This document shows positions 2,597-18,369 of a stretch of 18,887 bases of DNA, piece by piece. The position numbers and the translations under genes were made by a program. Under the pieces are notes generated by a model. The model worked only from the letters and a program-made list of their open reading frames with translations. It searched no databases and had not been told where the DNA came from. The stretch is taken from the IMG/VR virus record IMGVR_UViG_2778261087_000008. One strand, given 5' to 3'. Every line of letters starts with the position of its first letter. The first letter of the stretch is position 1. The DNA comes from a virus. Taxonomy: Duplodnaviria > Heunggongvirae > Uroviricota > Caudoviricetes.

Positions 2597-2615
2597 ATGA
2601 AACATACTGTAGAAG
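2597..2615 (+). repeat. attL core (hpt start-codon remnant)
   Basis: atgaaacatactgtagaag; matches the hpt start at 18351-18369 at 18 of 19 positions (c vs t at position 11). Lies 205 bp after the gcd start codon, which is where I recall the hpt ATG sitting in K-12. Continues as a 15-codon remnant ORF MKHTVEAKNFVFSCF ending at 2644. Confidence 0.7.
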
Positions 2616-2741
2616 CAAAAAACTTCGTGTTTTCATGCTTTTAGATGATTTCGTGAAATCTCCATTTTGATTTTTATTATCAGTAAGATACGATTGTTTT
2701 TGTTCGTATGTTTATGCGTTTTTTTCGACTGTAGCAACGAA

Positions 2742-2765
2742 CGGTGTATCACTCGGTGTATCACT
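2742..2765 (+). repeat. Tandem 12-bp repeat cggtgtatcact x2, candidate integrase arm-type binding sites (left arm)
   Basis: Two perfect tandem copies 22 bp upstream of the int start codon; the same motif recurs at 18263-18286 near the right end. Confidence 0.5.
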
Positions 2766-2787
2766 CGCAACTGATTCTGAACTGTTT

Positions 2788-4011
2788 ATGGCTGGCACAA
2801 ACAAACTGAGCGACAAAAAGCTAAAAGCATTGCTGGGTTCTGAGCGTGAAGCGCCGATCATGATTGCCGATGGTGAGGGGCTAAGCGTTAAGGTCTCGAA
2901 GCAAGGTAACGTTAGCTGGGTATTTTCATACCGGTTGGGAGGAAGGGGTAGCAAACTCGAACGTTTAACGCTTGGCCGTTACCCTGATATGCCGCTAAAA
3001 CTTGCGCGAGAAAAGCGGGAACAGTGTCGCCAGTGGCTGGCTGGTGGGCTTGATCCGAAAACTGAGATTGAGCTGAGCACAGAAGAAACGCTTAAGCCTG
3101 TAACGGTTAAAGACGCCCTGGAATATTGGTTGGTGAATTACGCCAGGAGAAAGCGCAGTGATGAGGCGTTGGTGAGGGCGCAGCTACGCAAGCATATTTA
3201 CCCGCGCCTTGGTCGTTATCCGATCACCAGATGTGAAACCCGCCATTGGGTGGCCTGTTTTGACGAAATAAACCAGACTAAACCCATGACCGCCGGCCGC
3301 ATGTTCCAGATTTCTAAACAGGCGTTACGTTTCTGCAAGGTTCGCCGTTATGCTGCCAGTGATGCTCTGGCCTTTCTCACCATTCAGGATGTAGGCCAGC
3401 CATCTGGTCAACGTGATCGCGTATTGTCAGATAGCGAGCTGGCTGATGTGTGGCGCTGTACAGATAGCGATGATCAGCAGCCGTATTATTCACGTCTGCT
3501 CAAAATGCTGGTGCTTTTTGGTGCGCGAACGATGGAAGTTCGCCTTTCTCGATGGTCAGAGTGGGATTTTACATCGTGGATTTGGACTGTACCGAAAGAG
3601 CATAGCAAAACCCGAGAGAAAATCGTGAGGTCGATACCTGAAGCTATACGCCCGTGGCTGGAAGAGTTAAAGCGCGAGACAGGGAAAACAGGTTTGTTAC
3701 TGGGCGAAGATCGTACCCGTCAGGCTGTATCATTGAAAGGGCGCAGGCTTTTTAAAGATTTTCACCATAACGAGCCGTGGACACTTCACGATCTGCGTCG
3801 GACGTTTTCTACGGGGCTAAACAATATGGGTATAGCACCGCATATAGTCGAGCTGCTGTTGGGCCATGCCTTGCCGGGAGTTATGGCGATTTATAACCGT
3901 AGTCTTTACTTACCGGAGAAGCTGGACGCGCTGAACAAGTGGTATGACCGCTTAGAACTTCTCGCGGGTAATCACTCTAATATCGTTATTTTAAAGGCTG
4001 GTGAAAAATGA
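2788..4011 (+). CDS. int: Tyrosine site-specific integrase (P4-like phage integrase family)
   Basis: 407-aa ORF next to the left attachment site; C-terminal catalytic region contains HDLRRTF and LLGHALPGVMAIYNRS, consistent with the R..H-x-x-R..Y signature of tyrosine recombinases. Confidence 0.9.
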   Translation: MAGTNKLSDKKLKALLGSEREAPIMIADGEGLSVKVSKQGNVSWVFSYRLGGRGSKLERLTLGRYPDMPLKLAREKREQCRQWLAGGLDPKTEIELSTEETLKPVTVKDALEYWLVNYARRKRSDEALVRAQLRKHIYPRLGRYPITRCETRHWVACFDEINQTKPMTAGRMFQISKQALRFCKVRRYAASDALAFLTIQDVGQPSGQRDRVLSDSELADVWRCTDSDDQQPYYSRLLKMLVLFGARTMEVRLSRWSEWDFTSWIWTVPKEHSKTREKIVRSIPEAIRPWLEELKRETGKTGLLLGEDRTRQAVSLKGRRLFKDFHHNEPWTLHDLRRTFSTGLNNMGIAPHIVELLLGHALPGVMAIYNRSLYLPEKLDALNKWYDRLELLAGNHSNIVILKAGEK

Positions 4012-4811
4012 GAATTAGCCACAAAAAAGATTTGCCAACATGGTTTGATTTAGATAACTACACTCAATTTATTGGCATGTCAGATAAAGACTTATTTTAT
4101 CAGTTGGTTGTTAGATATGACATGCTTGAAAACTTCTATCGATATGGCGGGTCTTTTTATAATGAACCTCTTACAAATAACGATGAAGTAGGAAGGATAC
4201 TTGGAAATGGCGCGGTCGCTAATGCGATTGATAGAGCTACGTACTTCTATGATGCGTTTAAACTTCCTATTAAAAGAGAAGGTGTTTTGTCTGGTGGGGT
4301 TGCGTTACGACCAATGTCCATTGAAGACTTTATTTATATGAAAGATGCTGTAGATAATTATATGGAAAATAATTTTACGGGAACGGCTGAAAATTTAGTT
4401 TACCATTCATTTACAAGTGTTAGCTCATTTTTGGAACCAAATGACCTTTTTATTAAAGTTGATTTGTCACGCCCGGATGATTTATTGATTGATGTGTTTA
4501 AAAAAAACCTCAAGAATTGGCGTGAGGAATTAAAAATAAAAGAAAAGGAAAAAACATACCAGTCATGGGAAACAATTAAAAAAAAGGTATACGATTATTC
4601 ACTTTTCCCCGTAGTTGATTTGATGATCTGGGCTAAATCTCGCGGGGCATGCGTCACCAATGGCGTGCTTGCTGTGGCTGTGTTTCCGAACGGAGAGTAT
4701 GACTCAACGCAGATAGCGCAAACCGTAAAGCCAAATATAGAAAAAATCTTCTCAATTTCTTCTATAGAAAAAATCAGGTCAGAACTTCAGGATAGAAAAA
4801 TTCTTCCTTAA
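4008..4811 (+). CDS. Hypothetical protein, AT-rich cargo gene of unknown function
   Basis: 267-aa ORF whose ATG overlaps the int stop (ATGA at 4008-4011); sampled 60-bp lines give roughly 30% GC versus roughly 55-58% in the packaging module (approximate hand counts); no motif I can recognise. Confidence 0.75.
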   Translation: MRISHKKDLPTWFDLDNYTQFIGMSDKDLFYQLVVRYDMLENFYRYGGSFYNEPLTNNDEVGRILGNGAVANAIDRATYFYDAFKLPIKREGVLSGGVALRPMSIEDFIYMKDAVDNYMENNFTGTAENLVYHSFTSVSSFLEPNDLFIKVDLSRPDDLLIDVFKKNLKNWREELKIKEKEKTYQSWETIKKKVYDYSLFPVVDLMIWAKSRGACVTNGVLAVAVFPNGEYDSTQIAQTVKPNIEKIFSISSIEKIRSELQDRKILP

Positions 4812-4845
4812 TCTTGGTGGTCAAAACAATTTAATTTTCGTCTAG

Positions 4846-4862
4846 TGTGACATCCAATCACA
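4846..4862. promoter_or_regulatory. Inverted repeat TGTGA-N7-TCACA upstream of the alpA-like gene (candidate operator)
   Basis: tgtgacatccaatcaca; perfect 5-bp arms; resembles the CRP half-site pair but with a 7-bp rather than 6-bp spacer. Confidence 0.3.
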
Positions 4863-4906
4863 AGGATAACAATAGCCCCCACAAACTTAGAAACAGTGGA
4901 GGCAAC

Positions 4907-5191
4907 ATGCAAATTATCACCTTTACCCCGCCAAATCCTGAACAACGCCGCACCATTCTGGAGGAGTACGGCTTCAAGTTCGATCGCCGAATCCGCGAAG
5001 ATGAATGCAGCGAGATCACCAGTCTTTCTCGTTCGAGCCGCTGGAAGATGGAACAGCAGGGGCGCTTCCCGCCGCGCTGTCACTTTGGCCGCAACAGCTG
5101 TGCCTGGCTTCTTTCGGATGTGCTCTGGTGGGTTCGTAATCCGCCTGCCGTGGAAAACGTCAATAACCCGTACAGCCGCAAATCTGCTTAA
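4907..5191 (+). CDS. alpA: AlpA-family transcriptional regulator / excisionase-like DNA-binding protein
   Basis: 94 aa from the ATG at 4907, preceded by GGAGG at spacing 6; region ITSLSRSSRWKMEQQGRFPPRCHFGRNSCAWLLSDVLWWV matches the AlpA helix-turn-helix pattern (S.S..W......G.FP.......R...W...DV..W). The track ORF starts 20 codons earlier at 4847. Confidence 0.75.
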   Translation: MQIITFTPPNPEQRRTILEEYGFKFDRRIREDECSEITSLSRSSRWKMEQQGRFPPRCHFGRNSCAWLLSDVLWWVRNPPAVENVNNPYSRKSA

Positions 5192-5211
5192 TTAACCACA
5201 GGTAATCAGAG

Positions 5212-5895
5212 ATGAAAAATATTAATGCCCTTAACGGGCAGGGATTCGCTCACCCTGTTGCCAGTAAAAGCGATATTAGCGTGCAGCTTAAACAGCTTCC
5301 TGCCGTCGAATTTCACGGGCAACGCGTGGTGACGTTCGCAATGATTGATACCGCGCACCAGCGACCTAAAGACACGGCTAAAAAGACTTTTCAGCGTAAT
5401 CGTACTCGCTTCATTGATGGTGAGGACTTTTTTATTGTCGGCGCGTCAGAGGTCGAATGGGGAGGGGCTGGATATTTAGACAGGGGCATTAAACGCCCTG
5501 GCAAAAAAATGAACAGTCCGATACGTGGCCGCGTAACACTGATTACGGAATCAGGCTATCTGCTGCTGACCAAACCGTTTAACGATGATTTGGCCTGGCA
5601 GGTACAGCGCCAGCTCGTGAAAGCTTATTTCCGTTGCCCGGAGTTTGTCACTTTCCATCATGTGGATCTGCCGTCGCTCGAAGAACTGATCGCCATGCCG
5701 GTTACTGATGCGCAAAACGCCGTGACTCGTGCGGACAAGCATTCTAAGCAGTTTCATGGCTCACAGGGCAGTAATGGAATGAATCTCCGCAAGAAGGAAC
5801 TCAAAGTTCTGCGTCCGGCGGTACGGCTGGTAGATGCGATGGGGCAGATTGATTTCGATAAATATGAGTGGGAGGCGGCACATGATCGCGCATAA
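5212..5895 (+). CDS. ORF6N-domain phage regulatory protein (putative antirepressor-like)
   Basis: 227-aa ORF; N-terminal segment QRVVTFAMIDTAHQRPKDTAKKTFQRNRTRFIDGEDFFIV resembles the ORF6N/KilA-N-type consensus (..KRN.ERFPEDFMF..). Confidence 0.65.
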   Translation: MKNINALNGQGFAHPVASKSDISVQLKQLPAVEFHGQRVVTFAMIDTAHQRPKDTAKKTFQRNRTRFIDGEDFFIVGASEVEWGGAGYLDRGIKRPGKKMNSPIRGRVTLITESGYLLLTKPFNDDLAWQVQRQLVKAYFRCPEFVTFHHVDLPSLEELIAMPVTDAQNAVTRADKHSKQFHGSQGSNGMNLRKKELKVLRPAVRLVDAMGQIDFDKYEWEAAHDRA

Positions 5896-5921
5896 AACAA
5901 AGGCGACCGGGGGCGGTCGCC
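5890..5921 (-). terminator. Rho-independent terminator for the leftward regulator operon
   Basis: Hairpin ggcgaccg-gggg-cggtcgcc (5902-5921); on the minus strand it is followed by tttgtttta. Confidence 0.5.
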
Positions 5922-5988
5922 AATGGATACACACTAAACTTGAACGCATCACCAACAATGCCACATTTGCGGCTGGTGGGCAATGTGA

Positions 5989-6162
5989 TCAGTCAGATTT
6001 GGTTCGTCCCAAGGTTTGCAACGAGAGCTTTTTCCTGTGCTCTTTAAGGAATTTCTCAAGAGCAAACGAACAAGGTGCGAATCTTTCTGATTCATGCTCT
6101 ATCTTTCTGCGCCGTCTTTTCCGTGCCGGTGATAATGTTTTGGTCAATTCTTTATCGGTCAT
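5989..6162 (-). CDS. Small basic hypothetical protein, second gene of the leftward operon
   Basis: 57 aa from the internal ATG at 6162 (AGGA 7 nt upstream); arginine/lysine-rich (ARKRRRRK); sits between the RHH gene and the terminator. Confidence 0.4.
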   Translation of the reverse strand: MTDKELTKTLSPARKRRRRKIEHESERFAPCSFALEKFLKEHRKKLSLQTLGRTKSD

Positions 6163-6219
6163 TGTGTTGTCCTGCATAGCAATGCGCCGTAGTTACTCAC
6201 ACCACGGCGCTGATAGTGA

Positions 6220-6417
6220 TTATTCTGATTCTTTGGCCTTCCGGCGCTGTTCATATTTTAATTTGCGTCCACAGGCATCTAAGACCCATGCGGAAAAATT
6301 AGCACTAGGATTAGTTAATTTTTCTTGTTCAACGCTGGCATCAATCCCATCTATAAGCTCATGTGGGAATCGAATATTTTTCTTTGCTGATTTGTTGTTT
6401 GTGTTACCGCTAGACAT
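6220..6417 (-). CDS. Ribbon-helix-helix (Arc/Mnt-like) transcriptional repressor
   Basis: 65-aa ORF; segment IRFPHELIDGIDASVEQEKLTNPSANFSAWVLDACGRKL fits the Arc-type RHH pattern; GAGG ribosome-binding site upstream; transcribed divergently from the replication genes across an operator-rich intergenic region. Confidence 0.6.
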   Translation of the reverse strand: MSSGNTNNKSAKKNIRFPHELIDGIDASVEQEKLTNPSANFSAWVLDACGRKLKYEQRRKAKESE

Positions 6418-6445
6418 TGATGCACCTCACTTAAATGGACTTTAT

Positions 6446-6527
6446 GGGCGCACACAATACAGCAAAAAAAATGAGATGTTAAGTATTGACATGTGCGCAC
6501 ACATGATTTTAATCTGTGCGCACAGTT
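6446..6527. promoter_or_regulatory. Divergent promoter/operator region with palindromic TGTGCGCACA sites
   Basis: Perfect 10-bp palindrome tgtgcgcaca at 6492-6501 and 6515-6524, plus a half-site gcgcacaca at 6448-6456; TTGACA hexamer at 6486-6491 directly abuts the first palindrome. Confidence 0.5.
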
Positions 6528-6622
6528 TGAGTTTTGTCACTCAAATTAAGCAACGCCCCGCAGTGCTCGCAACACATGCAGGGCGTCTAACCACCAACGA
6601 TAGCAAGAGTATCGAGGTAGCT

Positions 6623-6826
6623 ATGAGAAATCATACCACACACCCGCAAGGGCGGGACTCGCACAACCTGAATAAATACATCTGGCGTTTTATCGCCCTG
6701 AGCACGGCACAACCGCGCGTGATTACCATTGAGGCCACCAGCGAACAGGAAGCACGCCAGCAATCCCCGGCTGGCTGCGTGATGGTATTCGCCGCCCGTA
6801 TTCGTCAGGGGGTGTGCCATGCCTGA
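6623..6826 (+). CDS. Small hypothetical protein (67 aa), first gene of the rightward operon
   Basis: ATG at 6623 preceded by GAGG; stop overlaps the start region of the next ORF (6819), suggesting translational coupling. It is the 3' portion of the long track ORF 5834..6826, whose upstream part is judged spurious. Confidence 0.4.
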   Translation: MRNHTTHPQGRDSHNLNKYIWRFIALSTAQPRVITIEATSEQEARQQSPAGCVMVFAARIRQGVCHA

Positions 6827-7139
6827 CATGACCAATTACCAGTACCTGATTAATCCGCATTTTAACTGTGAGCATGATATTGCTAAAAAGGTTTATTCCG
6901 CTGCGAATGGGGCTACTGACAATATATCAATGGCTGTTGCGTCAATTGGTAGCCTGATGTGGTATGCGTCAGAAAATGAGGAATATGACGAAAAGGCTAT
7001 GCGCATTGACATGGGGAATATTGGCTTGTTACTGGCAATGCTTGGGCAGTTTGATATTTCGTTACGGTGCACCATTGAAAATGCCACAGATGCATTAAAT
7101 GCCATAAAGAAAGCGAATACTGATTCAAATCGGGGATAA
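6819..7139 (+). CDS. Hypothetical protein (106 aa)
   Basis: ORF with a GGGGG ribosome-binding site 6 nt upstream; AT-rich; no recognisable motif. Confidence 0.55.
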   Translation: MPDMTNYQYLINPHFNCEHDIAKKVYSAANGATDNISMAVASIGSLMWYASENEEYDEKAMRIDMGNIGLLLAMLGQFDISLRCTIENATDALNAIKKANTDSNRG

Positions 7140-7145
7140 ATAATC

Positions 7146-7445
7146 ATGAGAACATATTTATCTGGCTTGACTGCCAGCGGTTATGCACACCCAAAAATTA
7201 TCCCCGGCGCTATTTATCTGGATAAGAACGGTAACAGAGTAACGGTAAAAGAGCTGATGTTTGACCGTGTTTATTTTATTCGTGATGGCTATTCATTTCA
7301 TAGTTCGCTGAACGTGGAGATCTTTATTAGCAGATTCAGGCGGGAAATCCCGCTTTCCAGAAATAACCATGTGTCACGTGTGGATGTAGATAAAAAACTA
7401 CAGGAACTGAAAAACATGATTGCCGCGTGGAGAGAGCAGAAATGA
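7146..7445 (+). CDS. Hypothetical protein (99 aa)
   Basis: ORF with a GGGGA ribosome-binding site; its stop overlaps the primase start (ATGA at 7442-7445). Confidence 0.55.
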   Translation: MRTYLSGLTASGYAHPKIIPGAIYLDKNGNRVTVKELMFDRVYFIRDGYSFHSSLNVEIFISRFRREIPLSRNNHVSRVDVDKKLQELKNMIAAWREQK

Positions 7446-9565
7446 AAAAAGCGCCAAATTTAAAACACCAGCCGCGTGACAAAATGACGGAAGTCATCAT
7501 TTTTGCGGGTAGTAATGCGTGGGCACATGCGAAGCAGTGGCAGGAACAGGACGGGCGACTGGCTGGCGATAACGTGCCTCCTGTCTGGCTTGGAGAGCAA
7601 CAACTTGCCGAACTGGACAACCTGCAAATCGTACCGGACGGACGCTATCGCGTGCGTCTCTATCAGGCGGGGTTATTGCGTCCGGGGCTTGTTAATACCA
7701 TCGGGCAGAAACTGGCAGCGGCAGGTGTCAGGGATGCTGATTATTACCCTGAAGGAATGCACAGCCAGAAACGGGAGAACTGGCGCGAATATCTGGAACG
7801 TGAACGGGCAGAGCAGGCGGAAAAGAAAAAGGTAGTTGAACTGCCTGTAAAGAAAAAAGAGCCATGCTATCAGGATGATGAATTAAAGCCCCGCGTTGAA
7901 AGTCGCGCCGATGGTGTTTTCTGGGTAACGCCCAAAGTGGATAAGCAGTCAGGTGAAATTATCCGGCCTGAGACGTGGTTATGTTCTCCGCTTGAACTAC
8001 TGGGAACGGGGACGATCGGTAAAGAGCATTACCGCGTGATGCGCTGGAAAAAAACCGCAAACCATGAAGTCATCACAATGGCGATCCCGTGTGGTGGTAT
8101 CGGCGACCGTGACGGCTGGCGGTTACTTAAAGATCACGGGCTGAACGTGACAACCAACGGCAAATACAGGGCAATCCTGGCGGACTGGATGCAGTTAAGC
8201 GGAAGCCATGAGGAATGGCAGTTAAGCACAACAACGGGCTGGCATTTTGGCGCGTACATCATGCCGGACGGTTCGATCATTGGTGATTCTGAAAAACCGA
8301 TCCTGTTTACCGGAAAAAGCGCCGCGATTAACGGTTATTCCGTGGCGGGTACGGCGGAGGGCTGGCGCGAGAGTGTGGCGCGGCTGGCTGGCGGTAATGC
8401 CTCAATGATGCTGGGTGTGGCAACGTCACTGGCAGCGCCTTTAATTGGCCTTGTGGGTGCTGACGGCTTCGGGGTGCATCTTTTCGAACAGTCATCGGCA
8501 GGTAAGACCACCACGCAGAACATCGCATCAAGTTTATGGGGAGAGCCGGACGCACAACGGCTTACCTGGTACGGAACGGCGTTAGGTATCGCCAACGAGG
8601 CAGAGGCGCACAACGACGGGCTGTTACCCCTGGATGAAATAGGCCAGGCCGGAAACGCGCGGGAGGTGTCCACGTCAGCCTATACGTTGTTTAACGGCTC
8701 CGGGAAATTACAGGGGGCGAAGGACGGCGGCAACCGGGAGATAAAACACTGGCGCACGGTGGCAATCAGCACCGGAGAAATGGACGTTGAGACATTCCTC
8801 AAAACGGAGGGGATAAAAGTCAAAGCGGGGCAGCTTGTCCGCCTGCTTAACGTTCCGATGGAAAAAGCCACGCAATTTCACGAATACAGCACCGGAAAGG
8901 CGCACGCAGACGCGTTAAAAGATGCCTGGACAGAAAATCACGGGGCGGCGGGTCGTGAATGGGTTAAATGGCTGGCAGACCACCAGCAGGAGGCAAAGGA
9001 TACGGTAAGGGAATGCCGCGAACGGTGGCGCAACCTGATACCGGATAGCTACGGCGAGCAGGTCCACCGCGTGGGGGAACGTTTCGCGATACTGGAGGCT
9101 GCGCTTGTGCTTTCCGGTCATGTAACTGGCTGGGCCGCGCAGGAATGCCGGGACGCAATACAGCATAACTTTAATGCCTGGGTGAAGGAGTTCGGCACGG
9201 GTAATAGGGAATTTAAACAGATGGTTGAACAGGCTGAGGCGTTTTTGTCGTCGTTCGGGTTCAGTCGATACCTTCCTTACCCAAACAGTGATGAGCGTGA
9301 TTTACCGATTAAAGACCTTGCCGGATACAGAAAGGGGAGTATCAGAAATGAAGATGATGAGTTCCGTTTTTACACGTTTCCTCATGTGTTTGAGGGGGAG
9401 ATCGCACAGGGATTTAACCCATCCCACTTTGCCCGCGCGTTGAGTGCTGCCGGAATGCTGGAAGCGGGTAACGATCGCCGTTACAAGAAAAAGGCGCTCG
9501 GCAAAATTGGGGGTAAGCAGCATGTTTTTTACGTGATGATGTTCCAGCCTGAGGCAGAAGATTAA
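7442..9565 (+). CDS. Replication initiator primase-helicase (Pri-Rep type, P4 alpha-like role)
   Basis: About 707 aa from the ATG at 7442 (GGAG 9 nt upstream); Walker A-like FEQSSAGKTTTQ in the central domain; large multidomain protein immediately followed by an iteron cluster. Family assignment by pattern memory, not search. Confidence 0.8.
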   Translation: MKKAPNLKHQPRDKMTEVIIFAGSNAWAHAKQWQEQDGRLAGDNVPPVWLGEQQLAELDNLQIVPDGRYRVRLYQAGLLRPGLVNTIGQKLAAAGVRDADYYPEGMHSQKRENWREYLERERAEQAEKKKVVELPVKKKEPCYQDDELKPRVESRADGVFWVTPKVDKQSGEIIRPETWLCSPLELLGTGTIGKEHYRVMRWKKTANHEVITMAIPCGGIGDRDGWRLLKDHGLNVTTNGKYRAILADWMQLSGSHEEWQLSTTTGWHFGAYIMPDGSIIGDSEKPILFTGKSAAINGYSVAGTAEGWRESVARLAGGNASMMLGVATSLAAPLIGLVGADGFGVHLFEQSSAGKTTTQNIASSLWGEPDAQRLTWYGTALGIANEAEAHNDGLLPLDEIGQAGNAREVSTSAYTLFNGSGKLQGAKDGGNREIKHWRTVAISTGEMDVETFLKTEGIKVKAGQLVRLLNVPMEKATQFHEYSTGKAHADALKDAWTENHGAAGREWVKWLADHQQEAKDTVRECRERWRNLIPDSYGEQVHRVGERFAILEAALVLSGHVTGWAAQECRDAIQHNFNAWVKEFGTGNREFKQMVEQAEAFLSSFGFSRYLPYPNSDERDLPIKDLAGYRKGSIRNEDDEFRFYTFPHVFEGEIAQGFNPSHFARALSAAGMLEAGNDRRYKKKALGKIGGKQHVFYVMMFQPEAED

Positions 9566-9589
9566 CTCCCCTGTGTGAGGTGAAAAGTT

Positions 9590-9711
9590 GCGGGTTATGC
9601 GGGTTATCCTGTGCATAAGTGAATTAACTGCATGAATAAAAAGGAAATCAATAACCCGCACGTAACCCGCAAAACGGCAGTTATAACCCGCAAAAGTGCG
9701 ATTATAACCCG
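9590..9711. repeat. Iteron cluster 1 (candidate replication origin): GCGGGTTAT x2 tandem, AT-rich spacer, ATAACCCGC x4 inverted
   Basis: Forward copies at 9590-9598 and 9599-9607; reverse copies at 9651, 9663, 9683 and 9703 with roughly 10-21 bp phasing; AT-rich segment between them; lies directly downstream of the primase-helicase gene. Confidence 0.65.
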
Positions 9712-9776
9712 CAGAATTTCACCGTAAGGGTGTAAACAAGCGTAACTATCAACGTTAAAACCGGAGAACAGACAGC

Positions 9777-10199: not shown

Positions 10200-10216
10200 C
10201 GATAACAGGGGGATAC

Positions 10217-10476: not shown

Positions 10477-10501
10477 CCCGGATTTTTCCGGGTTTTCTTT
10501 T
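10477..10501 (+). terminator. Rho-independent terminator ending the replication module
   Basis: cccgga-tttt-tccggg hairpin followed by ttttctttt. Confidence 0.6.
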
Positions 10502-10738: not shown

Positions 10739-11908
10739 ATGAAGAAATTAATCGAACTCCGCCAGCAAAAAAACGCCCTGAAAAACCAGATGCGATCCCT
10801 GCTGGAAAAAGCCGACAGTGAAAACCGTAGTCTGAACGCTGAAGAAGGCAAACAGTTTGATGAACTGCGTGCAAAAGCTGATGCCCTCGACACAGAAATT
10901 TCCCGCCTCGAGTCTGTGGCTGATGAAGAACGCAGCAAGCCAGGAACGGGCATCCAGAAATTATCATCTGATGAATTGCGTAACTACATCGTAACCGGAG
11001 ATGTGCGATCACTGTCCACCAGCACTGACAGCGGCAGGGATGGCGGATATACCGTAATTCCTGAGCTTGATCGCGAAGTCATGCGCCAGCTACAGGATGA
11101 CAGTGTTATGCGCGTGATCGCGACCGTGAAGACCGCAAAATCAAATGAGTTTCAGAAACTGGTTTCCACTGGCGGCGCAACTGTAGGACGAGGCACAGAA
11201 GGCAGCGCACGCAGTGAAACCAACACCCCGAAAATTGAACGCGTAACCATCAAGCTGAATCCGATCTACGCCTACCCGAAAACCACGCAGGAAATCCTGG
11301 ATTTTTCAGAGGTGGATATTCTGGGCTGGTTATCCTCCGAAATTGCCGACACGTTCGCCAGCACCGAAGAGGATGATTTTGTTAATGGCGACGGTAACGG
11401 CAAGCCGAAAGGCTTCATGGCTTACACCCGTGCGGCGACCAGTGACAAAACCCGCGCTTTTGGCACCATTGAAAAAATAGTAGCGGCAAGTGGAACCGCC
11501 ATTACAGCGGACGAACTGATCGACATTCTCTACAAGCTGAAAGCGAAATACCGCAAAAATGCCGTCTGGGTGATGAACTCGGGCACGGCAGGGACACTAC
11601 AGAAGCTGAAAAATGAGAACGGCGATTATATCTGGCGCGACAGCCTTAAAGAAGGTGCGCCGGATATGTTGCTTGGTCGTCCTGTTTACTGCCTGGAGTC
11701 CATGCCGGACATCGGCGCAGGAAAAGCACCGCTAGCGGTTGGCGATTTCAGTCGTGGTTATTTCATCGTTGATCATGTAACAGGGATTCGCACCCGACCG
11801 GACAACATTACTGAACCCGGATTCTACAAGGTCCACACGGATAAATATCTGGGCGGTGGTGTGGTGGATTCAAACGCCATCAAAATTCTGGAAATGAAAG
11901 CTGGCTAG
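10739..11908 (+). CDS. Phage major capsid protein, HK97 family, with N-terminal coiled-coil delta (scaffold-like) domain
   Basis: 389-aa ORF; charged, heptad-like N-terminal 70 residues; remainder typical in length and composition for HK97-fold capsid proteins; adjacent to prohead protease and portal genes. Confidence 0.88.
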   Translation: MKKLIELRQQKNALKNQMRSLLEKADSENRSLNAEEGKQFDELRAKADALDTEISRLESVADEERSKPGTGIQKLSSDELRNYIVTGDVRSLSTSTDSGRDGGYTVIPELDREVMRQLQDDSVMRVIATVKTAKSNEFQKLVSTGGATVGRGTEGSARSETNTPKIERVTIKLNPIYAYPKTTQEILDFSEVDILGWLSSEIADTFASTEEDDFVNGDGNGKPKGFMAYTRAATSDKTRAFGTIEKIVAASGTAITADELIDILYKLKAKYRKNAVWVMNSGTAGTLQKLKNENGDYIWRDSLKEGAPDMLLGRPVYCLESMPDIGAGKAPLAVGDFSRGYFIVDHVTGIRTRPDNITEPGFYKVHTDKYLGGGVVDSNAIKILEMKAG

Positions 11909-11921
11909 TCATGAGTAAGGA

Positions 11922-11942
11922 GGAGGCTGCGGCCTCCTTTTT
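11922..11942 (+). terminator. Hairpin plus T-run immediately after the capsid gene (candidate partial terminator)
   Basis: ggaggc-tgcg-gcctcc followed by ttttt; sits 14 bp after the capsid stop. Confidence 0.45.
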
Positions 11943-11962
11943 CAGCTTTATGGAGTACACCG

Positions 11963-12523
11963 ATGAAAAACACCGATTTTGAAATCCGCACATCTGAACT
12001 GACCGCCAGCAATAAAAAGCTGGTGGGGTATGCCGTTCGCTGGAACAGCCTTTCAGAAATTATCTGGGACGAATTCCGCGAACAGTTCACGCCGGGGGCT
12101 TTTGCTGACTATCTGGCGGCGGGTAATGATGTGCGCTGCCTGTATGAGCATGACTATACCCAACTGCTGGGGCGCACCAAATCCGGCACTCTGGTACTGA
12201 CTGAGGATAACACCGGGTTACGTTTTGAACTGACACCGCCGGATACCCAGCTTGGAAAAGATGTGCTTACGCTGGTGGAGCGTGGCGACATTACAGGAAT
12301 GAGCTTTGGTTTTCGCGCATTATGCGAGGAGTGGAGTATCGCGCAAAAACCGTATTTGCGTACCGTAACCGCCGCTGAACTCCGTGAAATCACAATAACG
12401 TCGATGCCTGCTTATCCAGAATCTGGCGTGGAGATTGCCCACCGTTCGTTGTTTGCACAGCACCCTGAATTATGCCCGACAGGAAATAATCGTCATCGCT
12501 GGTCTGAGCTGGCGGGGTTGTGA
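11963..12523 (+). CDS. Phage prohead (head maturation) protease, HK97 family
   Basis: 186-aa ORF with the characteristic motifs EHDYTQLLGR and GMSFGF of the HK97 prohead protease family. Confidence 0.88.
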   Translation: MKNTDFEIRTSELTASNKKLVGYAVRWNSLSEIIWDEFREQFTPGAFADYLAAGNDVRCLYEHDYTQLLGRTKSGTLVLTEDNTGLRFELTPPDTQLGKDVLTLVERGDITGMSFGFRALCEEWSIAQKPYLRTVTAAELREITITSMPAYPESGVEIAHRSLFAQHPELCPTGNNRHRWSELAGL

Positions 12524-12524
12524 T

Positions 12525-13739
12525 ATGTGGTGGCCTTTTAGTCGTAAAAAAAGCGAGCAGCGTAACCTGTCCATTGATGATTTTCTGGCGCTGTCCGGCG
12601 TACCGAATACCGGATCCGGAGAATATGTTTCTGCCGGGACGGCTGAATCATTGCCTGCAGTGATGAATGCGGTTTCTGTCATCGCTGAGGCGGTGGCCAC
12701 GATGCCGTGTTATCTGTATCTGGTACGTAATGACAAGGGAAGGGAGGCGCGGGAATGGCTGGACAGTCACCCGGTAGATATTCTGCTGAATGAGCAGCCT
12801 AATTCGTGCCAGACACCTTACCAGTTTAAACGCACAATGATGCGTCACTGCCTGCTGAACGGTAACGCCTATGCGGTTATTGAGTGGGGGCAGGACGGGC
12901 AGCCAAAATCACTTCATCCTTATGCGCCGGGGTGTGTTGTACCGGAACGCACAGGCGCACACAAATACCGCTATACCATCACCGAACCCTATACAGGAAC
13001 GGTGCGCACGTATTTACAGGAAGAAGTTCTGCATCTCCGCTATGCCTCGGATGATGGCTTTCTGGGGCGCTCCCCCGTCACGATTTGCCGTGAGGCACTT
13101 GGGCTTGGCCTTGCTCAACAGCGCCACGGAGCCAGCATTATGAAAGATGGCATGATGGCGGCAGGGATTATCACGTCAGGCGAATGGCTGGACGGCGTGA
13201 AAGGTAAACAGGCATTGGATGCTCTGGAACGCTACAAGGGGGCGAAAAATGCCGGAAAAACGCCAATCCTTGAAGGGGGCATGGATTACAGGCAACTGGG
13301 AATGAGTAACCAGGATGCGGAATGGCTGGCCTCCCGTCGCTTCTCCATTGAAGACATCGCCCGCATGTTCAACGTATCGCCTATTTTTCTGCAGGAATAC
13401 AGCAACAGCACCTACAGCAATTTCAGCGAGGCAAGCCGCGCGTTTCTGACCATGACAATGCGCCCGTGGCTGGCGAACTTCGAACAGCAAATCAAGGCCG
13501 CTTTGCTGGTGGCTTCTCCCGTACCTGGTACCCGTTATCTGGTTGAGTTTGATTCAGCCGATTTATTACGCGCCACACCCACCGAACGTTATGCCACGTA
13601 TGAGAAAGGGATTAAGAACGGGATCATGAATCCGAACGAAGCCCGTGAGCGTGAGGGTATGCCGCCGCGTGAAGGTGGTGATGAGTTCAGCCAGGCATGG
13701 AAACAGACTGTGGAAATTAAAGGGAGAAAAGATGAGTGA
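12525..13739 (+). CDS. Phage portal protein, HK97 family
   Basis: About 404 aa from the ATG at 12525, 1 nt after the protease stop; size and position fit a portal. The track ORF 12435..13739 starts earlier and overlaps the protease gene. Confidence 0.85.
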   Translation: MWWPFSRKKSEQRNLSIDDFLALSGVPNTGSGEYVSAGTAESLPAVMNAVSVIAEAVATMPCYLYLVRNDKGREAREWLDSHPVDILLNEQPNSCQTPYQFKRTMMRHCLLNGNAYAVIEWGQDGQPKSLHPYAPGCVVPERTGAHKYRYTITEPYTGTVRTYLQEEVLHLRYASDDGFLGRSPVTICREALGLGLAQQRHGASIMKDGMMAAGIITSGEWLDGVKGKQALDALERYKGAKNAGKTPILEGGMDYRQLGMSNQDAEWLASRRFSIEDIARMFNVSPIFLQEYSNSTYSNFSEASRAFLTMTMRPWLANFEQQIKAALLVASPVPGTRYLVEFDSADLLRATPTERYATYEKGIKNGIMNPNEAREREGMPPREGGDEFSQAWKQTVEIKGRKDE

Positions 13740-14034
13740 AGCCAGAATTACACCTGATGAAGTCAGGGCACATCTTCGACTTGATGATGATTTATCCGGT
13801 GAAGGCGAACTTCTGAAAATGTATACCGATGCGGCGCTGGAAGCCTGCCAGAAGCATATCGGGAAACGTTTTGAAGACGGGCTGGAATTTACCCCGGCAA
13901 TGCGTGTTGGTTGCCTGATGTACATCGCTTTCCTGTACGAGAACCGGGAAGCGGTTTCACCAGTGGAGCACTCGGAACTGCCTATGGCTATTTCTGCGCT
14001 CTGGTCAGTTTATCGTGACGTAGGGGTGTACTGA
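13732..14034 (+). CDS. Phage head-tail connector (gp6-like) protein
   Basis: 100 aa from the ATG at 13732, overlapping the portal stop; N-terminal ITPDEVRAHLRLDDD matches the family pattern (..EVK.HLRID.D). Confidence 0.75.
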   Translation: MSEARITPDEVRAHLRLDDDLSGEGELLKMYTDAALEACQKHIGKRFEDGLEFTPAMRVGCLMYIAFLYENREAVSPVEHSELPMAISALWSVYRDVGVY

Positions 14035-14474
14035 TGCCGTGGCAACCATTAAGGCGATGCACTGAGCCTGGCTGTAATAAGCGCGTGAAGTCCGGCAAGT
14101 GTGAAGAGCACAGGCGGGCTGCATGGCGTGCAGAGGATGCCAGACGGGGACACCGCCGCGCGCGCGGGTATTCCCGACAGTGGGACAAATACCGCGCCCT
14201 GTACCTGAGCAAAAACCCGTTATGCGTGCGTTGTCTGGCTAAGGGGATTTATACGCCAGCTCTTGTGGTGGATCACATCATTCCCATCAATGGCGGCGGT
14301 GATGTTCTCTTCTGGCCTGAGTGGAATCACCAGGCATTGTGCCAGACGTGCCACAACCGTAAGACGACACGGGAAGATCCAGCCACGAAAGCAAACCGTA
14401 AAGCGGGCATGTATCGCGAGCAGGAAGAACGGGCGGCACACCGTAACGACTGGATGTATGGCGATGATGACTGA
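14034..14474 (+). CDS. HNH endonuclease (packaging-associated)
   Basis: 146-aa ORF with Cys-rich N-terminus and HNH motif DHIIPI...NHQALCQTCHNRKT; located directly upstream of the terminase genes. Confidence 0.85.
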   Translation: MPWQPLRRCTEPGCNKRVKSGKCEEHRRAAWRAEDARRGHRRARGYSRQWDKYRALYLSKNPLCVRCLAKGIYTPALVVDHIIPINGGGDVLFWPEWNHQALCQTCHNRKTTREDPATKANRKAGMYREQEERAAHRNDWMYGDDD

Positions 14475-14643
14475 ACAGGAGCAAACCAGGCTGATACGTG
14501 GACTGATAAGGCAGCGTGACACATGGAAGACACAGGAGACAGAGCACAAAGCCAACAGGACAGGGCGCACAAAACGCACCACAGCGAAGCGATTAACCGA
14601 CCGTGACCGCGAGGTCATGGAATGTTTTCGCAATCGCTGGTGA
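14458..14643 (+). CDS. Small basic hypothetical protein (61 aa), uncertain
   Basis: ORF overlapping the HNH 3' end in another frame; arginine/lysine-rich; no clear ribosome-binding site. Confidence 0.3.
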   Translation: MAMMTEQEQTRLIRGLIRQRDTWKTQETEHKANRTGRTKRTTAKRLTDRDREVMECFRNRW

Positions 14644-14651
14644 GGCCGTCA

Positions 14652-14711
14652 GAGGGGGTGGGGGTGGTTTTCAGGACGAAACCGTCCCTGCCGGACACCG
14701 ACCGCCCCCTC
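14652..14711. promoter_or_regulatory. G-rich nested inverted repeats upstream of terS (candidate cos / terminase recognition site)
   Basis: gagggggtgggggtgg ... ggacgaaaccgtcc ... ccccctc: outer arms GAGGGGG/CCCCCTC and inner arms ggacg/cgtcc, followed by an AT-rich tract (aatttttttgaaaataatt) before the terS ATG. Confidence 0.3.
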
Positions 14712-14762
14712 AAATTTTTGTGCACGGGAATTTTTTTGAAAATAATTGGGCGAAAAAAGAAC

Positions 14763-15119
14763 ATGGCAAGACCACCAAAAGCCCCCGCTTACCTGGATGA
14801 AATCGCGGTCAGGCAGTGGAAGGAAAAATCGCGCCAGCTTTCCGGGCGGGAAGACCTTACCCCCGCCGACTGGAGCAATCTGGAACTGTATTGTGTTAAC
14901 TACTCCATATACCGCAAAGCCGTCGAAGACCTTGCGACGCGCGGGTTCAGCATTGTTAACAGTCAGGGCAGCGAGAGCAGAAACCCCGCCCTGAGCGCAA
15001 AGGCTGACGCAGAAAGAATAATGATCAAAATGGCTTCTTTGCTGGGTTTTGACCCGGTAAGCCGCCGCAGAAATCCACCGGAAACAGAGGAAGAGGACGA
15101 GCTTGACCGCCTGGCATGA
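14763..15119 (+). CDS. Terminase small subunit (P27-family-like)
   Basis: 118 aa from the ATG at 14763 (MARPPKAPAYL...); acidic C-terminus; position immediately upstream of TerL. The track ORF begins at 14622 within the G-rich region. Confidence 0.78.
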   Translation: MARPPKAPAYLDEIAVRQWKEKSRQLSGREDLTPADWSNLELYCVNYSIYRKAVEDLATRGFSIVNSQGSESRNPALSAKADAERIMIKMASLLGFDPVSRRRNPPETEEEDELDRLA

Positions 15120-16764
15120 GTACGCAGAAGGCGTAAAAAACGGCAAAATTACGGCCTGTAAACGACTGAAACAGGCCGTTAAACGGTATTTTTCTGACCT
15201 TGAAAACCCCCTTTACACGTTCGATCCGGAGGTCGTGGAGCGGTTTATTGCCTTTTCCAGGGTGTGTCCGCACGTAAAAGGCGCAATGCGCGGTAGCCCC
15301 ATTGAGCTGGAGCCGTGGCAGCAGTTCGCCTTTGCGTGCATCCTGGGCTTTAAGGTTAAGGCCACCGGACGGCGCAAATACACCAGCGCATTCATTGAAG
15401 TACCGCGAAAAAATGCCAAATCCACGGTCGCCGCTATCCTGGCTAACTGGTTTCTGGTTATGGAAAACGGGCAGCAGGATATTTACACCGCCGCCGTGAG
15501 TCGTGATCAGGCGCGGATCGTGTTTGATGATGCGCGTCAGATGTGCCTTTTATCCCGACCGTTACGAAAGCGGGTAAATATTCAGGCACACAAGGTGATA
15601 CACCCGAAAACCAACAGCCTGTTAAAGCCACTGGCAGCAAAAGCGGCAACCATTGAAGGTACAAATCCGAGTCTTGCCATTGTGGATGAATATCACCTGC
15701 ACCCTGACAACGGGGTTTATTCCGCACTTGAGCTGGGGATGGGGGCGCGTCCGGAGGGGCTGTTATTTGCCATCACCACATCGGGGAGCAACGTTGTTTC
15801 AGCCTGTAAACAACACTATGACTATTGCTGTCAGATACTGGATGGTGAAGAGATGAACGAATCCATGTTCGTTCTGATTTACGAGCTGGATGATGAAAGC
15901 GAGGTTGACGATCCGGCGATGTGGATAAAGGCGAATCCAAATATCGATGTTTCCGTCGATCGTGAAAAACTGGCCTCAACCATCCAGAAAGCGCGGGGTA
16001 TTCCGTCGCAGTGGGTGGAAATGCTCACCAAGCGATTCAATATCTGGTGTCAGGGGGCTACGCCGTGGATGGGTAACGGTGCATGGGCGGAGTGCGCCGG
16101 AACGTTCGCGGAGGCGGATTTATACGGGCAGGAGTGCTACGCGGGGCTGGACTTATCATCAACCAGCGATATTTCCAGCGTGTGCTATGCCTTTCCGGTC
16201 GGTAAAAAGATTATGCTGGTTTCCCGTCACTATCTGCCGGAATTTCAGCTACAGAACCCCGCCAATAAAAACCGCGCCATCTATCGCCAGTGGGTAAAGG
16301 CGGGCTGGATACGCACAACACCGGGTGACTGCATTGATTATGACCGTATCCGTGATGACATCATGGCGGATGCAGAGAATTTCAATATCAGGCTGGTGGG
16401 CTTTGATACGTGGAACGCCACGCACCTGAGAACGCAGTTACAGGGGGCAGGCTTTGAGGTGGAGCCGTTCCCGCAAACCTACCTTCGTTTCAGTCCGGCG
16501 GCGAAATCGTTCGAGGTTTTTGTTAACCGGAAGGTGATTGTGCATCGTGGTGATCCGGTGCTGGCCTGGTCAATGAGTAATGTTGTGATGCAGAGTGACG
16601 CGAACGCCAATATCAAGCCGAACAAGAAAAAATCATCCAACAAGATAGACCCGAGCGTTGCGGCGCTGATGGCGTTTGGCACATTCCAGGCTGAGCATGA
16701 GGAATTTGCATTTGATATGAGCGACAGCCAGAAAGAGCGACTAGCGGCATTTGATGGGGTATGA
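15103..16764 (+). CDS. Terminase large subunit
   Basis: 553-aa ORF; ATPase region with Walker A-like VPRKNAKST and Walker B-like LAIVDEYH; apparent TTG start at 15103 (GAGGA 5 nt upstream) overlapping the terS 3' end by 17 nt. Confidence 0.88.
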   Translation: MTAWHEYAEGVKNGKITACKRLKQAVKRYFSDLENPLYTFDPEVVERFIAFSRVCPHVKGAMRGSPIELEPWQQFAFACILGFKVKATGRRKYTSAFIEVPRKNAKSTVAAILANWFLVMENGQQDIYTAAVSRDQARIVFDDARQMCLLSRPLRKRVNIQAHKVIHPKTNSLLKPLAAKAATIEGTNPSLAIVDEYHLHPDNGVYSALELGMGARPEGLLFAITTSGSNVVSACKQHYDYCCQILDGEEMNESMFVLIYELDDESEVDDPAMWIKANPNIDVSVDREKLASTIQKARGIPSQWVEMLTKRFNIWCQGATPWMGNGAWAECAGTFAEADLYGQECYAGLDLSSTSDISSVCYAFPVGKKIMLVSRHYLPEFQLQNPANKNRAIYRQWVKAGWIRTTPGDCIDYDRIRDDIMADAENFNIRLVGFDTWNATHLRTQLQGAGFEVEPFPQTYLRFSPAAKSFEVFVNRKVIVHRGDPVLAWSMSNVVMQSDANANIKPNKKKSSNKIDPSVAALMAFGTFQAEHEEFAFDMSDSQKERLAAFDGV

Positions 16765-17054
16765 CGAGAATGACTGAAACCGATCTACTAAAAATAATTC
16801 GCTGCGTTACCGGAGTCTGCCAGGCAACAGGCAAACCGGAGGCCAAGCAGCCGGATACCGTCACCGCTGAAAATTACGCGCGTGTGGTGGCTAAGGTGAT
16901 GCGCCGTGACGGTATTGAGCTTAACGGCGTGGATATGCGCAACATACGAACCAGAGTCCTTGAGTTGCTGGCATACCGTCGCCGTTCTCAACAACGGAGG
17001 GAGAGCGCGAAAAATAATTACCAGTGGAAGAAGCCGGAACGGTTGCGGCGGTAG
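16761..17054 (+). CDS. Hypothetical protein (97 aa), basic C-terminus
   Basis: ATG overlaps the terL stop (ATGA at 16761-16764); last ORF of the island; no motif recognised. Confidence 0.5.
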   Translation: MTRMTETDLLKIIRCVTGVCQATGKPEAKQPDTVTAENYARVVAKVMRRDGIELNGVDMRNIRTRVLELLAYRRRSQQRRESAKNNYQWKKPERLRR

Positions 17055-17055
17055 A

Positions 17056-17093
17056 TTCCTGATATTCAGGAAAACCACGAATCTGTGGGTTTT
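17056..17093 (+). terminator. Two tandem hairpins after the last island gene (candidate terminator)
   Basis: ttcctga-tat-tcaggaa (17056-17072) then aaaaccac-gaatct-gtgggtttt (17071-17092) with an A-tract before and T-tract after. Confidence 0.35.
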
Positions 17094-17393
17094 ACTGGCG
17101 CGGTTACGGCGGTGACACGCACCGAGGCAGAACAATTACCGTAGGTTAAAGCGACAGTATTCACACCAAAGGCAGAAATTAGCGGTTAACGTAACTGACT
17201 GATATTTTCAGGAACAGCCAACGGCTGAGGCCGGAGCTATAAGAATAGCTTTGGGTACAGTCCTCAGTTTTGAGGGATGTTAACCAACTGAATAATAAGC
17301 AAACCTCAAAATTGAGTTTTGTATCTGCCTGAGTTATTTCTGTGCTAACTTGTTGATATTCCAGACGGCCCAAAAATGGGTTGGCTGGTGGGT

Positions 17394-17511
17394 GAGTTGC
17401 AGATTTGCAACTCGACCATGAAACTACGGAAACTACCCGTAGTTTGGGTAGTAAGAGCAACACCCAGATTTTGGGGCTTACTCGCGATCCCCAAATAAAG
17501 GGGATCGGTGG
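17394..17511. repeat. 118-bp hairpin-dense repeat, copy 1
   Basis: Matches 17828-17945 at 113 of 118 positions; contains hairpins gagttgca-gatt-tgcaactc, aaactacgg-aaactac-ccgtagttt (overlapping the alternative ctaccc-gtagttt-gggtag) and gatcccc-aaataaa-ggggatc. Confidence 0.8.
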
Positions 17512-17541
17512 CATCACTGGCCCCACTTTCCTGATGTGTTT

Positions 17542-17693
17542 GCGGGTTATTTGGGAGAGGTTGCGGGTTATTTTGAATGACTTGCGGGTTACGATTTGGC
17601 TAACATTTGAACATGTCATTTTTCAACGCATTGATATTAAATAATAAAAAATACTTAGCACGCGAAGATAACCCGCTAACCCGCATAACCCGC
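17542..17693. repeat. Iteron cluster 2: GCGGGTTA(T) x3 phased at 21 bp, AT-rich spacer, ATAACCCGC x3 tandem inverted
   Basis: Forward copies at 17542, 17563 and 17584; AT-rich 17600-17665; reverse copies at 17668-17693. Same motif and architecture as cluster 1 at 9590-9711. Confidence 0.6.
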
Positions 17694-17827
17694 ACTGTTT
17701 TGTATATATATACGAAAAATTGCATTCAGGAGGGGTAGCAAAATCCCTACCGTCTCTTATCTCTTGGAGTGCCCGCCTCTTCGAATTTTAACCCCCGTGA
17801 AATTACAAAATTTCCCTGACTGATGGC

Positions 17828-17945
17828 GAGTTGCAGATTTGCAACTCGACTATGAAACTACGGAAACTACCCGTAGTTTGGGTAGTAAGAGTAACACCCA
17901 GATTTTGGGGCTTACTTGCGATACCCAAATACAGGGGATCGGTGG
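17828..17945. repeat. 118-bp hairpin-dense repeat, copy 2
   Basis: About 96% identical to 17394-17511; the five mismatches include taa to tac at the position of the copy-1 mini-ORF stop. Confidence 0.8.
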
Positions 17946-18262
17946 AAGAAATATCGTTTCTCATATGTGAGTACCGAGGGCGGAATTCCGCCTTCGGTTA
18001 CTTATTGTGCTCATGCACAGGGAGGGGCGGGTCAAATCTCTGTACCCTGACGTCTTCCGGACTGCCCGCTCCATCGATTTTTTATACCCGCGAAAAATGC
18101 TTCACGCTGGTGGGCATGATGCGTGGGGATGCTGATAATGGGTTATTGTGGGATAGATGTCTCATACAATAAGAGATTCATAATTTGCTTTTTAATACTG
18201 TTATACTCGCCGCCTTTCTACCGTGCTCATGCTTTCGCATATTTTCGGCTTTGTGCAATAAT

Positions 18263-18286
18263 CCGTATATCACTCGGTGTATCACT
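18263..18286 (+). repeat. Repeat ccgtatatcact + cggtgtatcact, candidate integrase arm-type binding sites (right arm)
   Basis: Shares 19 consecutive bp (tatcactcggtgtatcact) with 2747-2765; 64 bp upstream of the attR core. Confidence 0.5.
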
Positions 18287-18350
18287 TTTAGCTAAAATGC
18301 ATGGCGTGTTTGTTAATTTAACTGATTAAAATCAGTGGGATATAAAGTTT

Positions 18351-18369
18351 ATGAAACATATTGTAGAAG
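18351..18369 (+). repeat. attR core (first 19 nt of hpt)
   Basis: atgaaacatattgtagaag; direct repeat of 2597-2615 with one mismatch. Confidence 0.7.

Follow-up and report, generated by a model that had tools for sequence, protein, structure and literature searches.

A probable capsid-forming phage-inducible chromosomal island at the first codons of Escherichia coli hpt

How can a mobile element occupy the first codons of a housekeeping gene and leave that gene with a complete reading frame? This question is raised by the IMG/VR virus record IMGVR_UViG_2778261087_000008, a stretch of 18,887 nucleotides (hereafter the window) that runs from the stop codon of gcd at one end to the stop codon of hpt at the other, and in which the start of hpt is present twice, once at either end of a 15.7-kb island. 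The answer that we propose is that positions 2616-18350, together with the island-derived part of the right-hand copy of the hpt start, very probably constitute a capsid-forming phage-inducible chromosomal island (cf-PICI) that was integrated into the start of hpt by its own integrase.

The two copies of the hpt start

A first-pass annotation of the window had placed a 19-bp direct repeat at the start of hpt, and both copies lie exactly where it put them: ATGAAACATACTGTAGAAG at 2597-2615 and ATGAAACATATTGTAGAAG at 18351-18369, with a single c/t difference between them. They are the only matches to the 19-mer in the window when up to three mismatches are allowed, whereas none is expected (200 shuffles). 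The left copy continues, as had also been claimed, as a remnant open reading frame (ORF) of 15 codons, MKHTVEAKNFVFSCF (2597-2644, + strand, from translation), which is ended by the TAG at 2642-2644. This ORF is a by-product of the junction and is not conserved, the left junctions of sister islands meeting a stop after differing numbers of codons.

The left copy stands at the native position of the gene. Its host flank is gcd, encoding quinoprotein glucose dehydrogenase (1-2391, - strand, start codon the complement of 2389-2391; as annotated in RefSeq for the identical region of strain KSC9 and for K-12), and the spacer between gcd and the left ATG (2392-2596, + strand) measures 205 bp, equal to that of K-12 MG1655 (L001, 793-997, between the end of gcd at 792 and the start of hpt at 998), which agrees with the length that the first-pass annotation had given for K-12. 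This native intergenic region now lies upstream of the integrase gene, int. Its last 120 bp, the part that was aligned, are identical to K-12, as is the core to 2615, and the first difference comes at 2616 (C in the window, T in K-12). On the right, the flank shows no relation to K-12 as far as 18349, the T at 18350 is common to both, and from 18351 onwards the window equals K-12 with a C-to-T change at 18361 as the sole difference. A 501-nt probe across the left junction (2200-2700) was searched against 5,426 complete E. coli genomes; 5,425 of them match, nearly all reaching only 2615 or 2618. Island-free E. coli keep both the 205-bp spacer and the same 5' sequence of hpt, which places the left copy at the native ATG. 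The hpt site is uninterrupted in 5,354 of these 5,425 genomes and split in two, that is, occupied, in the other 71.

Two bases mark the place of strand exchange. At 2607/18361, the left junction (attL) has C, the right junction (attR) has T and the empty site (attB) has C, and at 2616/18370 the bases are C, T and T, respectively. Taking the T at 18361 and the C at 2616 to come from the attachment site of the island (attP), as the results below support, confines the exchange to the stretch between them, the 8-bp segment TGTAGAAG (2608-2615 and 18362-18369), which extends from the third position of hpt codon 4 to the first position of codon 7. It is the only segment with a difference between attB and attP on each side, and its length lies in the 6-8 bp range of lambda-type overlaps. 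Empty-site alignment, genome probe and an attP-bearing contig agree on the composition of both cores: attL (2597-2615, + strand) carries the host C at 2607, and attR (18351-18369, + strand) is island-derived over 18351-18361, including the T that yields Ile4. The earlier proposal of a crossover within the last 8 bp of the repeat is thereby sustained, attL having the host C before and an island C after GAAG, attR having the island T before and a host T after it, and the attP junction of a sister island reading ATT.

That contig, the metagenome sequence CYGL01003291.1, came from an exact-pattern scan for the predicted attP and holds the attP junction of a sister island, ...ATGAAACATATTGTAGAAGCAAAAA... 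Its positions 1-1690 correspond to the right end of the island of strain ATCC 43886 (99.9%) and positions 1671-2975 to the left end and int of the same island (99.6%), and the two halves meet at gtgaattATGAAACATATTGTAGAAGCAAAAATT (ATGAAACATATTGTAGAAG-CAAAAA). A second attP, of another satellite type that has TAT at codon 4, is found in L017 and reads ATGAAACATTATGTAGAAGTAAAAA, with genes for an Ogr/Delta protein and a P2-family capsid on one side and int on the other. The island of strain A36 has the same TAT at codon 4 of its attR, its attL reads ACT...GAAGTAATG-tttttt, and its hpt encodes Tyr4. L017 itself (QAKE01000006.1, 12.7 kb) is filed as a 'Bacillota bacterium' metagenome-assembled genome, although its sequence is that of a satellite of enterobacterial type that has an attP and, in the part examined, lacks host DNA; most probably the contig represents a satellite genome, excised or packaged, that was assigned to the bin of another organism. 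Exact-pattern scans of IMG/VR gave no match to the attP-specific pattern and one attL, in a Klebsiella-like host (L022).

In the mechanism that we propose, the arm-domain tyrosine integrase of the island would recombine attP, ...gtttATGAAACATATTGTAGAAGCaaaaa..., flanked by doubled copies of the motif GTRTATCACT at about -80 and +132 bp, with the first 19 nt of hpt, the strands being exchanged within TGTAGAAG. The attL so formed would consist of the native promoter region and the native ATG-AAA-CAT-AC, followed by island DNA with a stop after 15 codons. The attR would consist of island DNA, the island's own ATG-AAA-CAT-AT and the remainder of hpt, leaving the ORF whole with Thr4 changed to Ile and a 5' region made up entirely of island DNA. 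Excision by the same integrase, probably directed by AlpA, would restore ACT, and the attP junction of this island is predicted to read gtttATGAAACATATTGTAGAAGCaaaaaac.

Several observations weigh against this account. No excised or circular form of this exact island was found, the predicted attP being present for sister islands only (CYGL01003291.1, which is L023, and L017), and the former contig, whose integrase is 84% identical, could represent a tandem pair or a concatemer instead of a circle. In the Kluyvera metagenome-assembled genome L013, the attL core ACTGTTGAAG has GTT and not GTA within the 8-bp segment, while the attP of L017, with an integrase 99% identical to that of L013, has GTA; either attP has adapted to the host or the overlap is shorter than 8 bp (GAAGTAA) in that lineage. 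The identity block published for these elements by TIGER is the neighbouring TATGAAACATA and not TGTAGAAG. On the side of gene expression, a promoter consensus scan of 17000-18420 returned 2 sites where 2.5 are expected, which is chance level, and the promoter-like match nearest to hpt (18234-18262) is conserved in only part of the islands.

Expression of hpt behind island DNA

The present hpt gene (18351-18887, + strand) is an intact ORF of 178 codons whose product differs from that of K-12 only by Thr4Ile, the codon change from act to att that had been deduced from the mismatch in the repeat. Its first 11 nt and all DNA upstream are island DNA; that everything before codon 1 belongs to the island, as claimed earlier, is confirmed by a right flank unrelated to the empty site before 18350. 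The 64 bp directly upstream of the gene (18287-18350, + strand), which include the palindrome ACTGATTAAAATCAGT, are absent from empty sites, kept in sister islands and also present in the attP contig. Before 18351 the window offers hpt no in-frame start codon. With the 5' end of hpt replaced, it falls to the island to provide both the start codon and every upstream signal, and we infer that hpt is transcribed from island DNA. Judged from geometry, the native hpt promoter, presumably located in 2392-2596, may now read into int. Consensus scans of both junctions for promoters and terminators gave counts at or near chance, with no + strand sigma-70-like site called in the native spacer (2392-2596), and singled out neither the native nor a replacement hpt promoter. 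A by-eye look for a PurR or CRP operator, or for core-type inverted repeats, near ACTGATTAAAATCAGT (18321-18336), with the inverted pair ATGAAAC...GTTTTCAT, gave nothing convincing.

The locus also bears on the start codon of hpt. The crystallized constructs of the E. coli enzyme (HPRT; 1G9S and 5KNR) comprise 182 residues and start with MVRD, four codons upstream of the RefSeq start. This upstream ATG (2585-2599 region; compare 18330-18353) is unusable in occupied strains and absent in Erwinia and Serratia. Because occupied strains cannot use it and other genera do not have it, the comparison favours MKH as the natural start of hpt.

The hpt gene is a dispensable salvage gene, and this gives some weight to the possibility, which we nevertheless consider unlikely, that the insertion silences or strongly lowers hpt, with the ATG and reading frame in attP being kept only for the resemblance of the core to attB. 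Such a reading would fit the lack of an above-chance island promoter upstream of hpt, the lack of conservation of the upstream 64 bp between the cf-PICI type and the A36/L017 type, and the weak Shine-Dalgarno-like sequence before the island-borne start. However, the native ribosome-binding region is equally weak, both codon-4 variants found in attP (ATT and TAT) are sense codons, the frame is kept in all islands, and the annotations of all occupied genomes inspected give hpt as intact.

More doubtful is a promoter swap, in which a rightward promoter in the P arm of attP (for example, TTCGCA-17-AATAAT at 18234-18262, directly ahead of the arm sites) would serve int in the circle and hpt once the island is integrated; the idea draws on the geometry, on this chance-level consensus match and on the resemblance of the arms to each other over 58 nt. 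If true, the native hpt promoter would be captured by int and the supply of integrase would follow the regulation of a purine-salvage gene, and integrase bound to its arm sites could also modulate hpt.

Position of the crossover and the arm-type sites

No perfect identity shared by attL and attR is longer than the 11-bp TATGAAACATA (2596-2606 and 18350-18360), which forms the upper-case block in those published alignments that are considered here (PMC10111431). It would be natural to place the crossover there, with the T at 18361 a polymorphism of the recipient hpt and the C at 2607 derived from the island, yet several lines of evidence make this very improbable. A crossover in TATGAAACATA needs recipients with ATT, and a chimeric probe that joins ATT to the native upstream and downstream sequences has no perfect match in any of the 5,425 genomes, each best match having one mismatch; ATT was thus never seen at an unoccupied hpt site. 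ATT instead accompanies the island: all five cf-PICI-type attR sequences, from four strain backgrounds, read ATT...GAAG-T and their attL sequences ACT...GAAG-C, and the sister islands that share this pattern reside in unrelated strains and have integrases that are 84-96% identical. Of the two attP junctions observed, one has ATT and the other TAT, neither having ACT, and the distances to the arm sites fit the published 81/132 geometry only when the centre lies in TGTAGAAG. The sequences therefore indicate that the crossover lies in TGTAGAAG, next to rather than within the published block.

The arm sites are contained in a second repeat that the first-pass annotation had listed at 2747-2765 and 18268-18286. 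This repeat is real and corresponds to a doubled 10-mer, GTRTATCACT, which has four matches in the window (2744-2753, 2756-2765, 18265-18274 and 18277-18286) where 0.12 are expected. In the P' arm, two copies of GTGTATCACT (2744-2765, + strand) start 132.5 bp after the centre of the crossover segment, and in the P arm the pair GTATATCACT/GTGTATCACT (18265-18286, + strand) ends 79.5 bp before it. The doubled motif, as GTGTATCACT or GTGTATCAAT, has a conserved position in 12 relatives from eight genera. It is best read as a pair of arm-type sites, and not as a junction, because the integrase has an arm-binding domain; this N-terminal domain is predicted to bind the doubled motif, GGTGTATCACTCGGTGTATCACT. 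That the 19-22-bp repeats at 2744-2765 and 18265-18286 are the true junctions and the hpt-start repeat is incidental is hardly credible, even though they are longer, almost perfect, direct and near both ends, since 2616-2743 and 18287-18350 are absent from empty sites and so are island DNA, both attP contigs hold one doublet on each side of the hpt-like core, the tandem doublets keep a constant spacing from the core in all relatives, which is what arm-type sites should show, and recombination between the doubled motifs leads, in L015, to loss of the core. The doublets thus lie inside the island and flank its attP junction, which excludes the alternative junction that the first-pass annotation had left in play.

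L015 is a degenerate element of Candidatus Erwinia dacicola in which, within the 260 bp that precede int (at 1727), the P and P' doubled motifs are fused and the hpt-like core is missing. This arrangement would be the expected product of recombination between two direct motif copies of attP, and the element is presumably no longer able to integrate.

A comparable arm arrangement is published for helper-embedded PICIs, in which a doubled TGTATTGC lies 81 +/- 2 bp before and 132 +/- 2 bp after the centre of attP and is said to be absent from other PICIs (PMC10111431). The hpt elements share this geometry (79.5/132.5 bp) and the doubling of a motif of 8-10 nt, but differ in its sequence, which is GTGTATCACT or GTGTATCAAT instead of TGTATTGC. 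Doubled motifs are also seen near the ends of PICIs elsewhere, with two copies of GGTGTAGTTAAT at clpS (L024, ~4560-4590), two of TGTGTGGTCA at thiM (L025, ~4440-4470) and a doubled TGTATAAACA in PICIs at the fis site (L018-L020, ~2940-2970). From these sequences, doubled arm sites look general in this integrase group and not specific to helper-embedded PICIs.

The P' arm as a whole (2616-2787, + strand) was delimited by an alignment of 12 attL and attP sequences from eight genera. Upstream of each doubled motif, the two arms are similar over 58 nt. A further motif, GTTTTCATGCT at 2629-2639, 14-24 bp after the crossover segment, is present in the hpt islands of the eight genera and in fis PICIs. 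It is a partial inverted copy of ATGAAAC, while the core of the fis PICIs is unrelated to the hpt core, and AlpA, IHF or the integrase may bind to it. A third, partial copy of the hpt core at 4336-4354 (17/19 to 2595-2613) has more than three mismatches to the full 19-mer and was judged to be a chance match.

Gene content, relatives and significance

Genes were called by Pfam, PHROG and NCBIfam scans and from the RefSeq annotation of strain KSC9, and these sources agree; the KSC9 island is identical at the probed junction segments and 99.7% identical across the P' arm and int. All genes of the island named below are on the + strand. The tyrosine integrase of 407 residues (2788-4011; Pfam Arm-DNA-bind_3, PF13356, 5.5e-19, with Phage_int_M and Phage_integrase) has its gene start 172 bp from the attL core. 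It is followed by a DUF6387 protein (4008-4811), an AlpA-family regulator and candidate excisionase (4907-5191; Phage_AlpA, PF05930, E = 5.3e-10, 39.5 bits against a cut-off of 21), an ORF6N (Bro-network) protein (5212-5895) and a 330-residue ORF (5834-6826) with an Icd-like C-terminus (NF033153, phrog_6196) and an unmatched N-terminal part. At the equivalent of this last ORF, KSC9 is annotated with a pseudogene fragment, a 67-residue Icd-like gene and, on the other strand, a small YlcI/YnfO gene. Profile scans further identified a DUF4222 protein (7146-7445), a DUF927 primase/helicase as replication protein (7427-9565), with a weak match to the Cch1 helicase, and a single-strand DNA-binding protein (SSB; 9777-10199).

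Next in the island are two modules, all members of which score above the curated Pfam cut-offs. The capsid module (10739-14034; also annotated in KSC9) has an HK97-type major capsid protein (10739-11908), an S78 prohead protease (11963-12523), a portal (12525-13739) and a head-tail connector (13732-14034). The packaging module (14034-16764) has an HNH endonuclease (14034-14474), a P27-family small terminase subunit, TerS (14763-15119), and the large subunit, TerL (15103-16764). No tail or lysis family was found among the ORFs of the island. Judging by these genes, the DNA between the repeats is a cf-PICI. The class was described with EcCIEDL933 as its prototype and is defined by helper-phage induction and by small capsids of its own that are joined to helper tails; its members have no tail or lysis genes and measure ~10-15 kb (Penades and Rocha groups, bioRxiv 10.1101/2022.09.08.507074). 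The island has the same gene set in the same order (int, regulators and primase; capsid, protease, portal and connector; hnh, terS and terL) and is slightly over that size range. Its packaging module is ~82% identical in nucleotide sequence to O157:H7 genomes, in matches not confirmed to be EcCIEDL933. Unlike the prototype, the island has a different integrase and attachment site, and a right end of 1.3 kb that is non-coding and contains a second iteron cluster.

The iterons are formed by the 8-mer GCGGGTTA, which has 12 exact copies where 0.5 are expected, in two origin-like clusters (9590-9712 and 17542-17693), each with direct and then inverted copies about an AT-rich spacer. The first cluster (two direct and four inverted copies) directly follows the primase gene, the usual position of a PICI origin, and is a candidate origin. 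The second lies in the unannotated right end (17055-18264, + strand; repeat, fold and iteron scans), where it is bracketed by two copies of a structured non-coding element (17346-17511 and 17806-17945, on to ~18146; RNA fold of -81.8 kcal/mol, z = -8.3). Single copies of this element are present at the right end of the PICIs adjoining clpS (L024, 3967-4316) and thiM (L025, 3958-4338), and the element occurs in 664 of the 5,426 E. coli genomes, with no annotated feature beneath it in nearly all of the matches listed. Rfam, at its gathering thresholds, has no match in the window, and the only match of the right-end non-coding region in a phage collection is one of 78 nt, in an unannotated 2-kb record. 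The element is possibly a packaging or regulatory site.

The 71 occupied sites divide into 12 genomes with the integrase of this window, seven with an integrase that is 92-94% identical in protein (86-88% in DNA), nine of the ATCC 43886 type and 43 of the A36 type. These amount to four integrase lineages and three satellite kinds at the hpt site of E. coli, namely cf-PICIs, an island of VG1046-3E9 with the same replication genes and no capsid module, and the satellites with a P2-family capsid and Ogr/Delta. Related integrases reuse the same hpt core, which backs the earlier claim that the integrase targets the 5' end of a protein-coding gene: integrases that are 62-96% identical occur at this core in E. 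coli and in Klebsiella, Erwinia, Serratia, Xenorhabdus, Photorhabdus, Kluyvera and Winslowiella. When one genome per species was scanned, 81-96% identical integrases adjoined the core in all of these other genera except Photorhabdus, where its neighbour is a truncated relative (74% over 173 residues), and the relatives at 58-59% are fis PICIs. Of the 5,426 E. coli genomes, 538 carry the packaging module, and in most of these a near-identical module sits elsewhere in the chromosome; the cargo is thus common, the integration module being the rare part.

The hpt attachment site and the element family have been known since 2023, when 49 hpt PICIs were described as a new subfamily (Tommasini, Mageeney & Williams 2023, NAR Genom Bioinform, PMC10111431), defined by a terminal tyrosine integrase that matches the 11capE integrase with more than 400 bits. 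As in these elements, attL and attR of the window share TATGAAACATA, the tyrosine integrase adjoins attL, and int, alpA and the primase gene are co-directional, which agrees with the core-gene arrangement of PICIs in general. The attL and attR strings of one element, Eco10586.16.hpt (Supplementary Files 3 and 4 of that paper), are identical to the window over the printed stretches. In the parts of the paper covered here, TATGAAACATA is given as the TIGER block, and no comment was found on the 5'-end position, on Thr4Ile, on the loss of the native promoter or on arm motifs of hpt PICIs. Two other groups have integrases of the same clade, namely the fis PICIs, in which the 3' end of fis is replaced, and the helper-embedded PICIs, which enter phage late genes (PMC10111431), whereas the hpt islands replace the 5' end of a gene. 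The integrase is 56-60% identical to fis-targeting integrases (50% for the A36 integrase), and the P' motif GTTTTCATGCT is common to both groups.

In the hpt island, as in integration of the icd and tRNA type, the gene is kept whole, but only 11 coding nucleotides are replaced and the promoter region is displaced. Phage 21 and e14, which enter icd, and elements that enter tRNA genes keep the target whole through a copy of part of it in attP; they replace the 3' end, over up to ~250 bp, and leave the promoter and start untouched, a mode of integration also summarised in PMC10111431. Another element for comparison is SpyCIM1, a phage-like chromosomal island in the 5' end of mutL in Streptococcus pyogenes, which interrupts mutL while integrated and acts as a growth-phase switch. 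Both have the 5' end of a housekeeping gene as target, but at hpt the frame and the start codon are rebuilt and no switching is known.

In summary, the value of these results is confirmatory, with refinements that comprise the 8-bp crossover, the origin of Thr4Ile and Thr4Tyr, two natural attP junctions in public assemblies, the arm-site geometry of hpt PICIs, the occupancy count in E. coli, and at least four integrase lineages and three satellite kinds on the same 19 nt. The locus is a clear, textbook example of how a mobile element can enter a conserved housekeeping gene at its 5' end and rebuild the start codon from its own sequence, and every occupied genome bears a one-residue signature of it, Thr4Ile or, in the second satellite type, Thr4Tyr.

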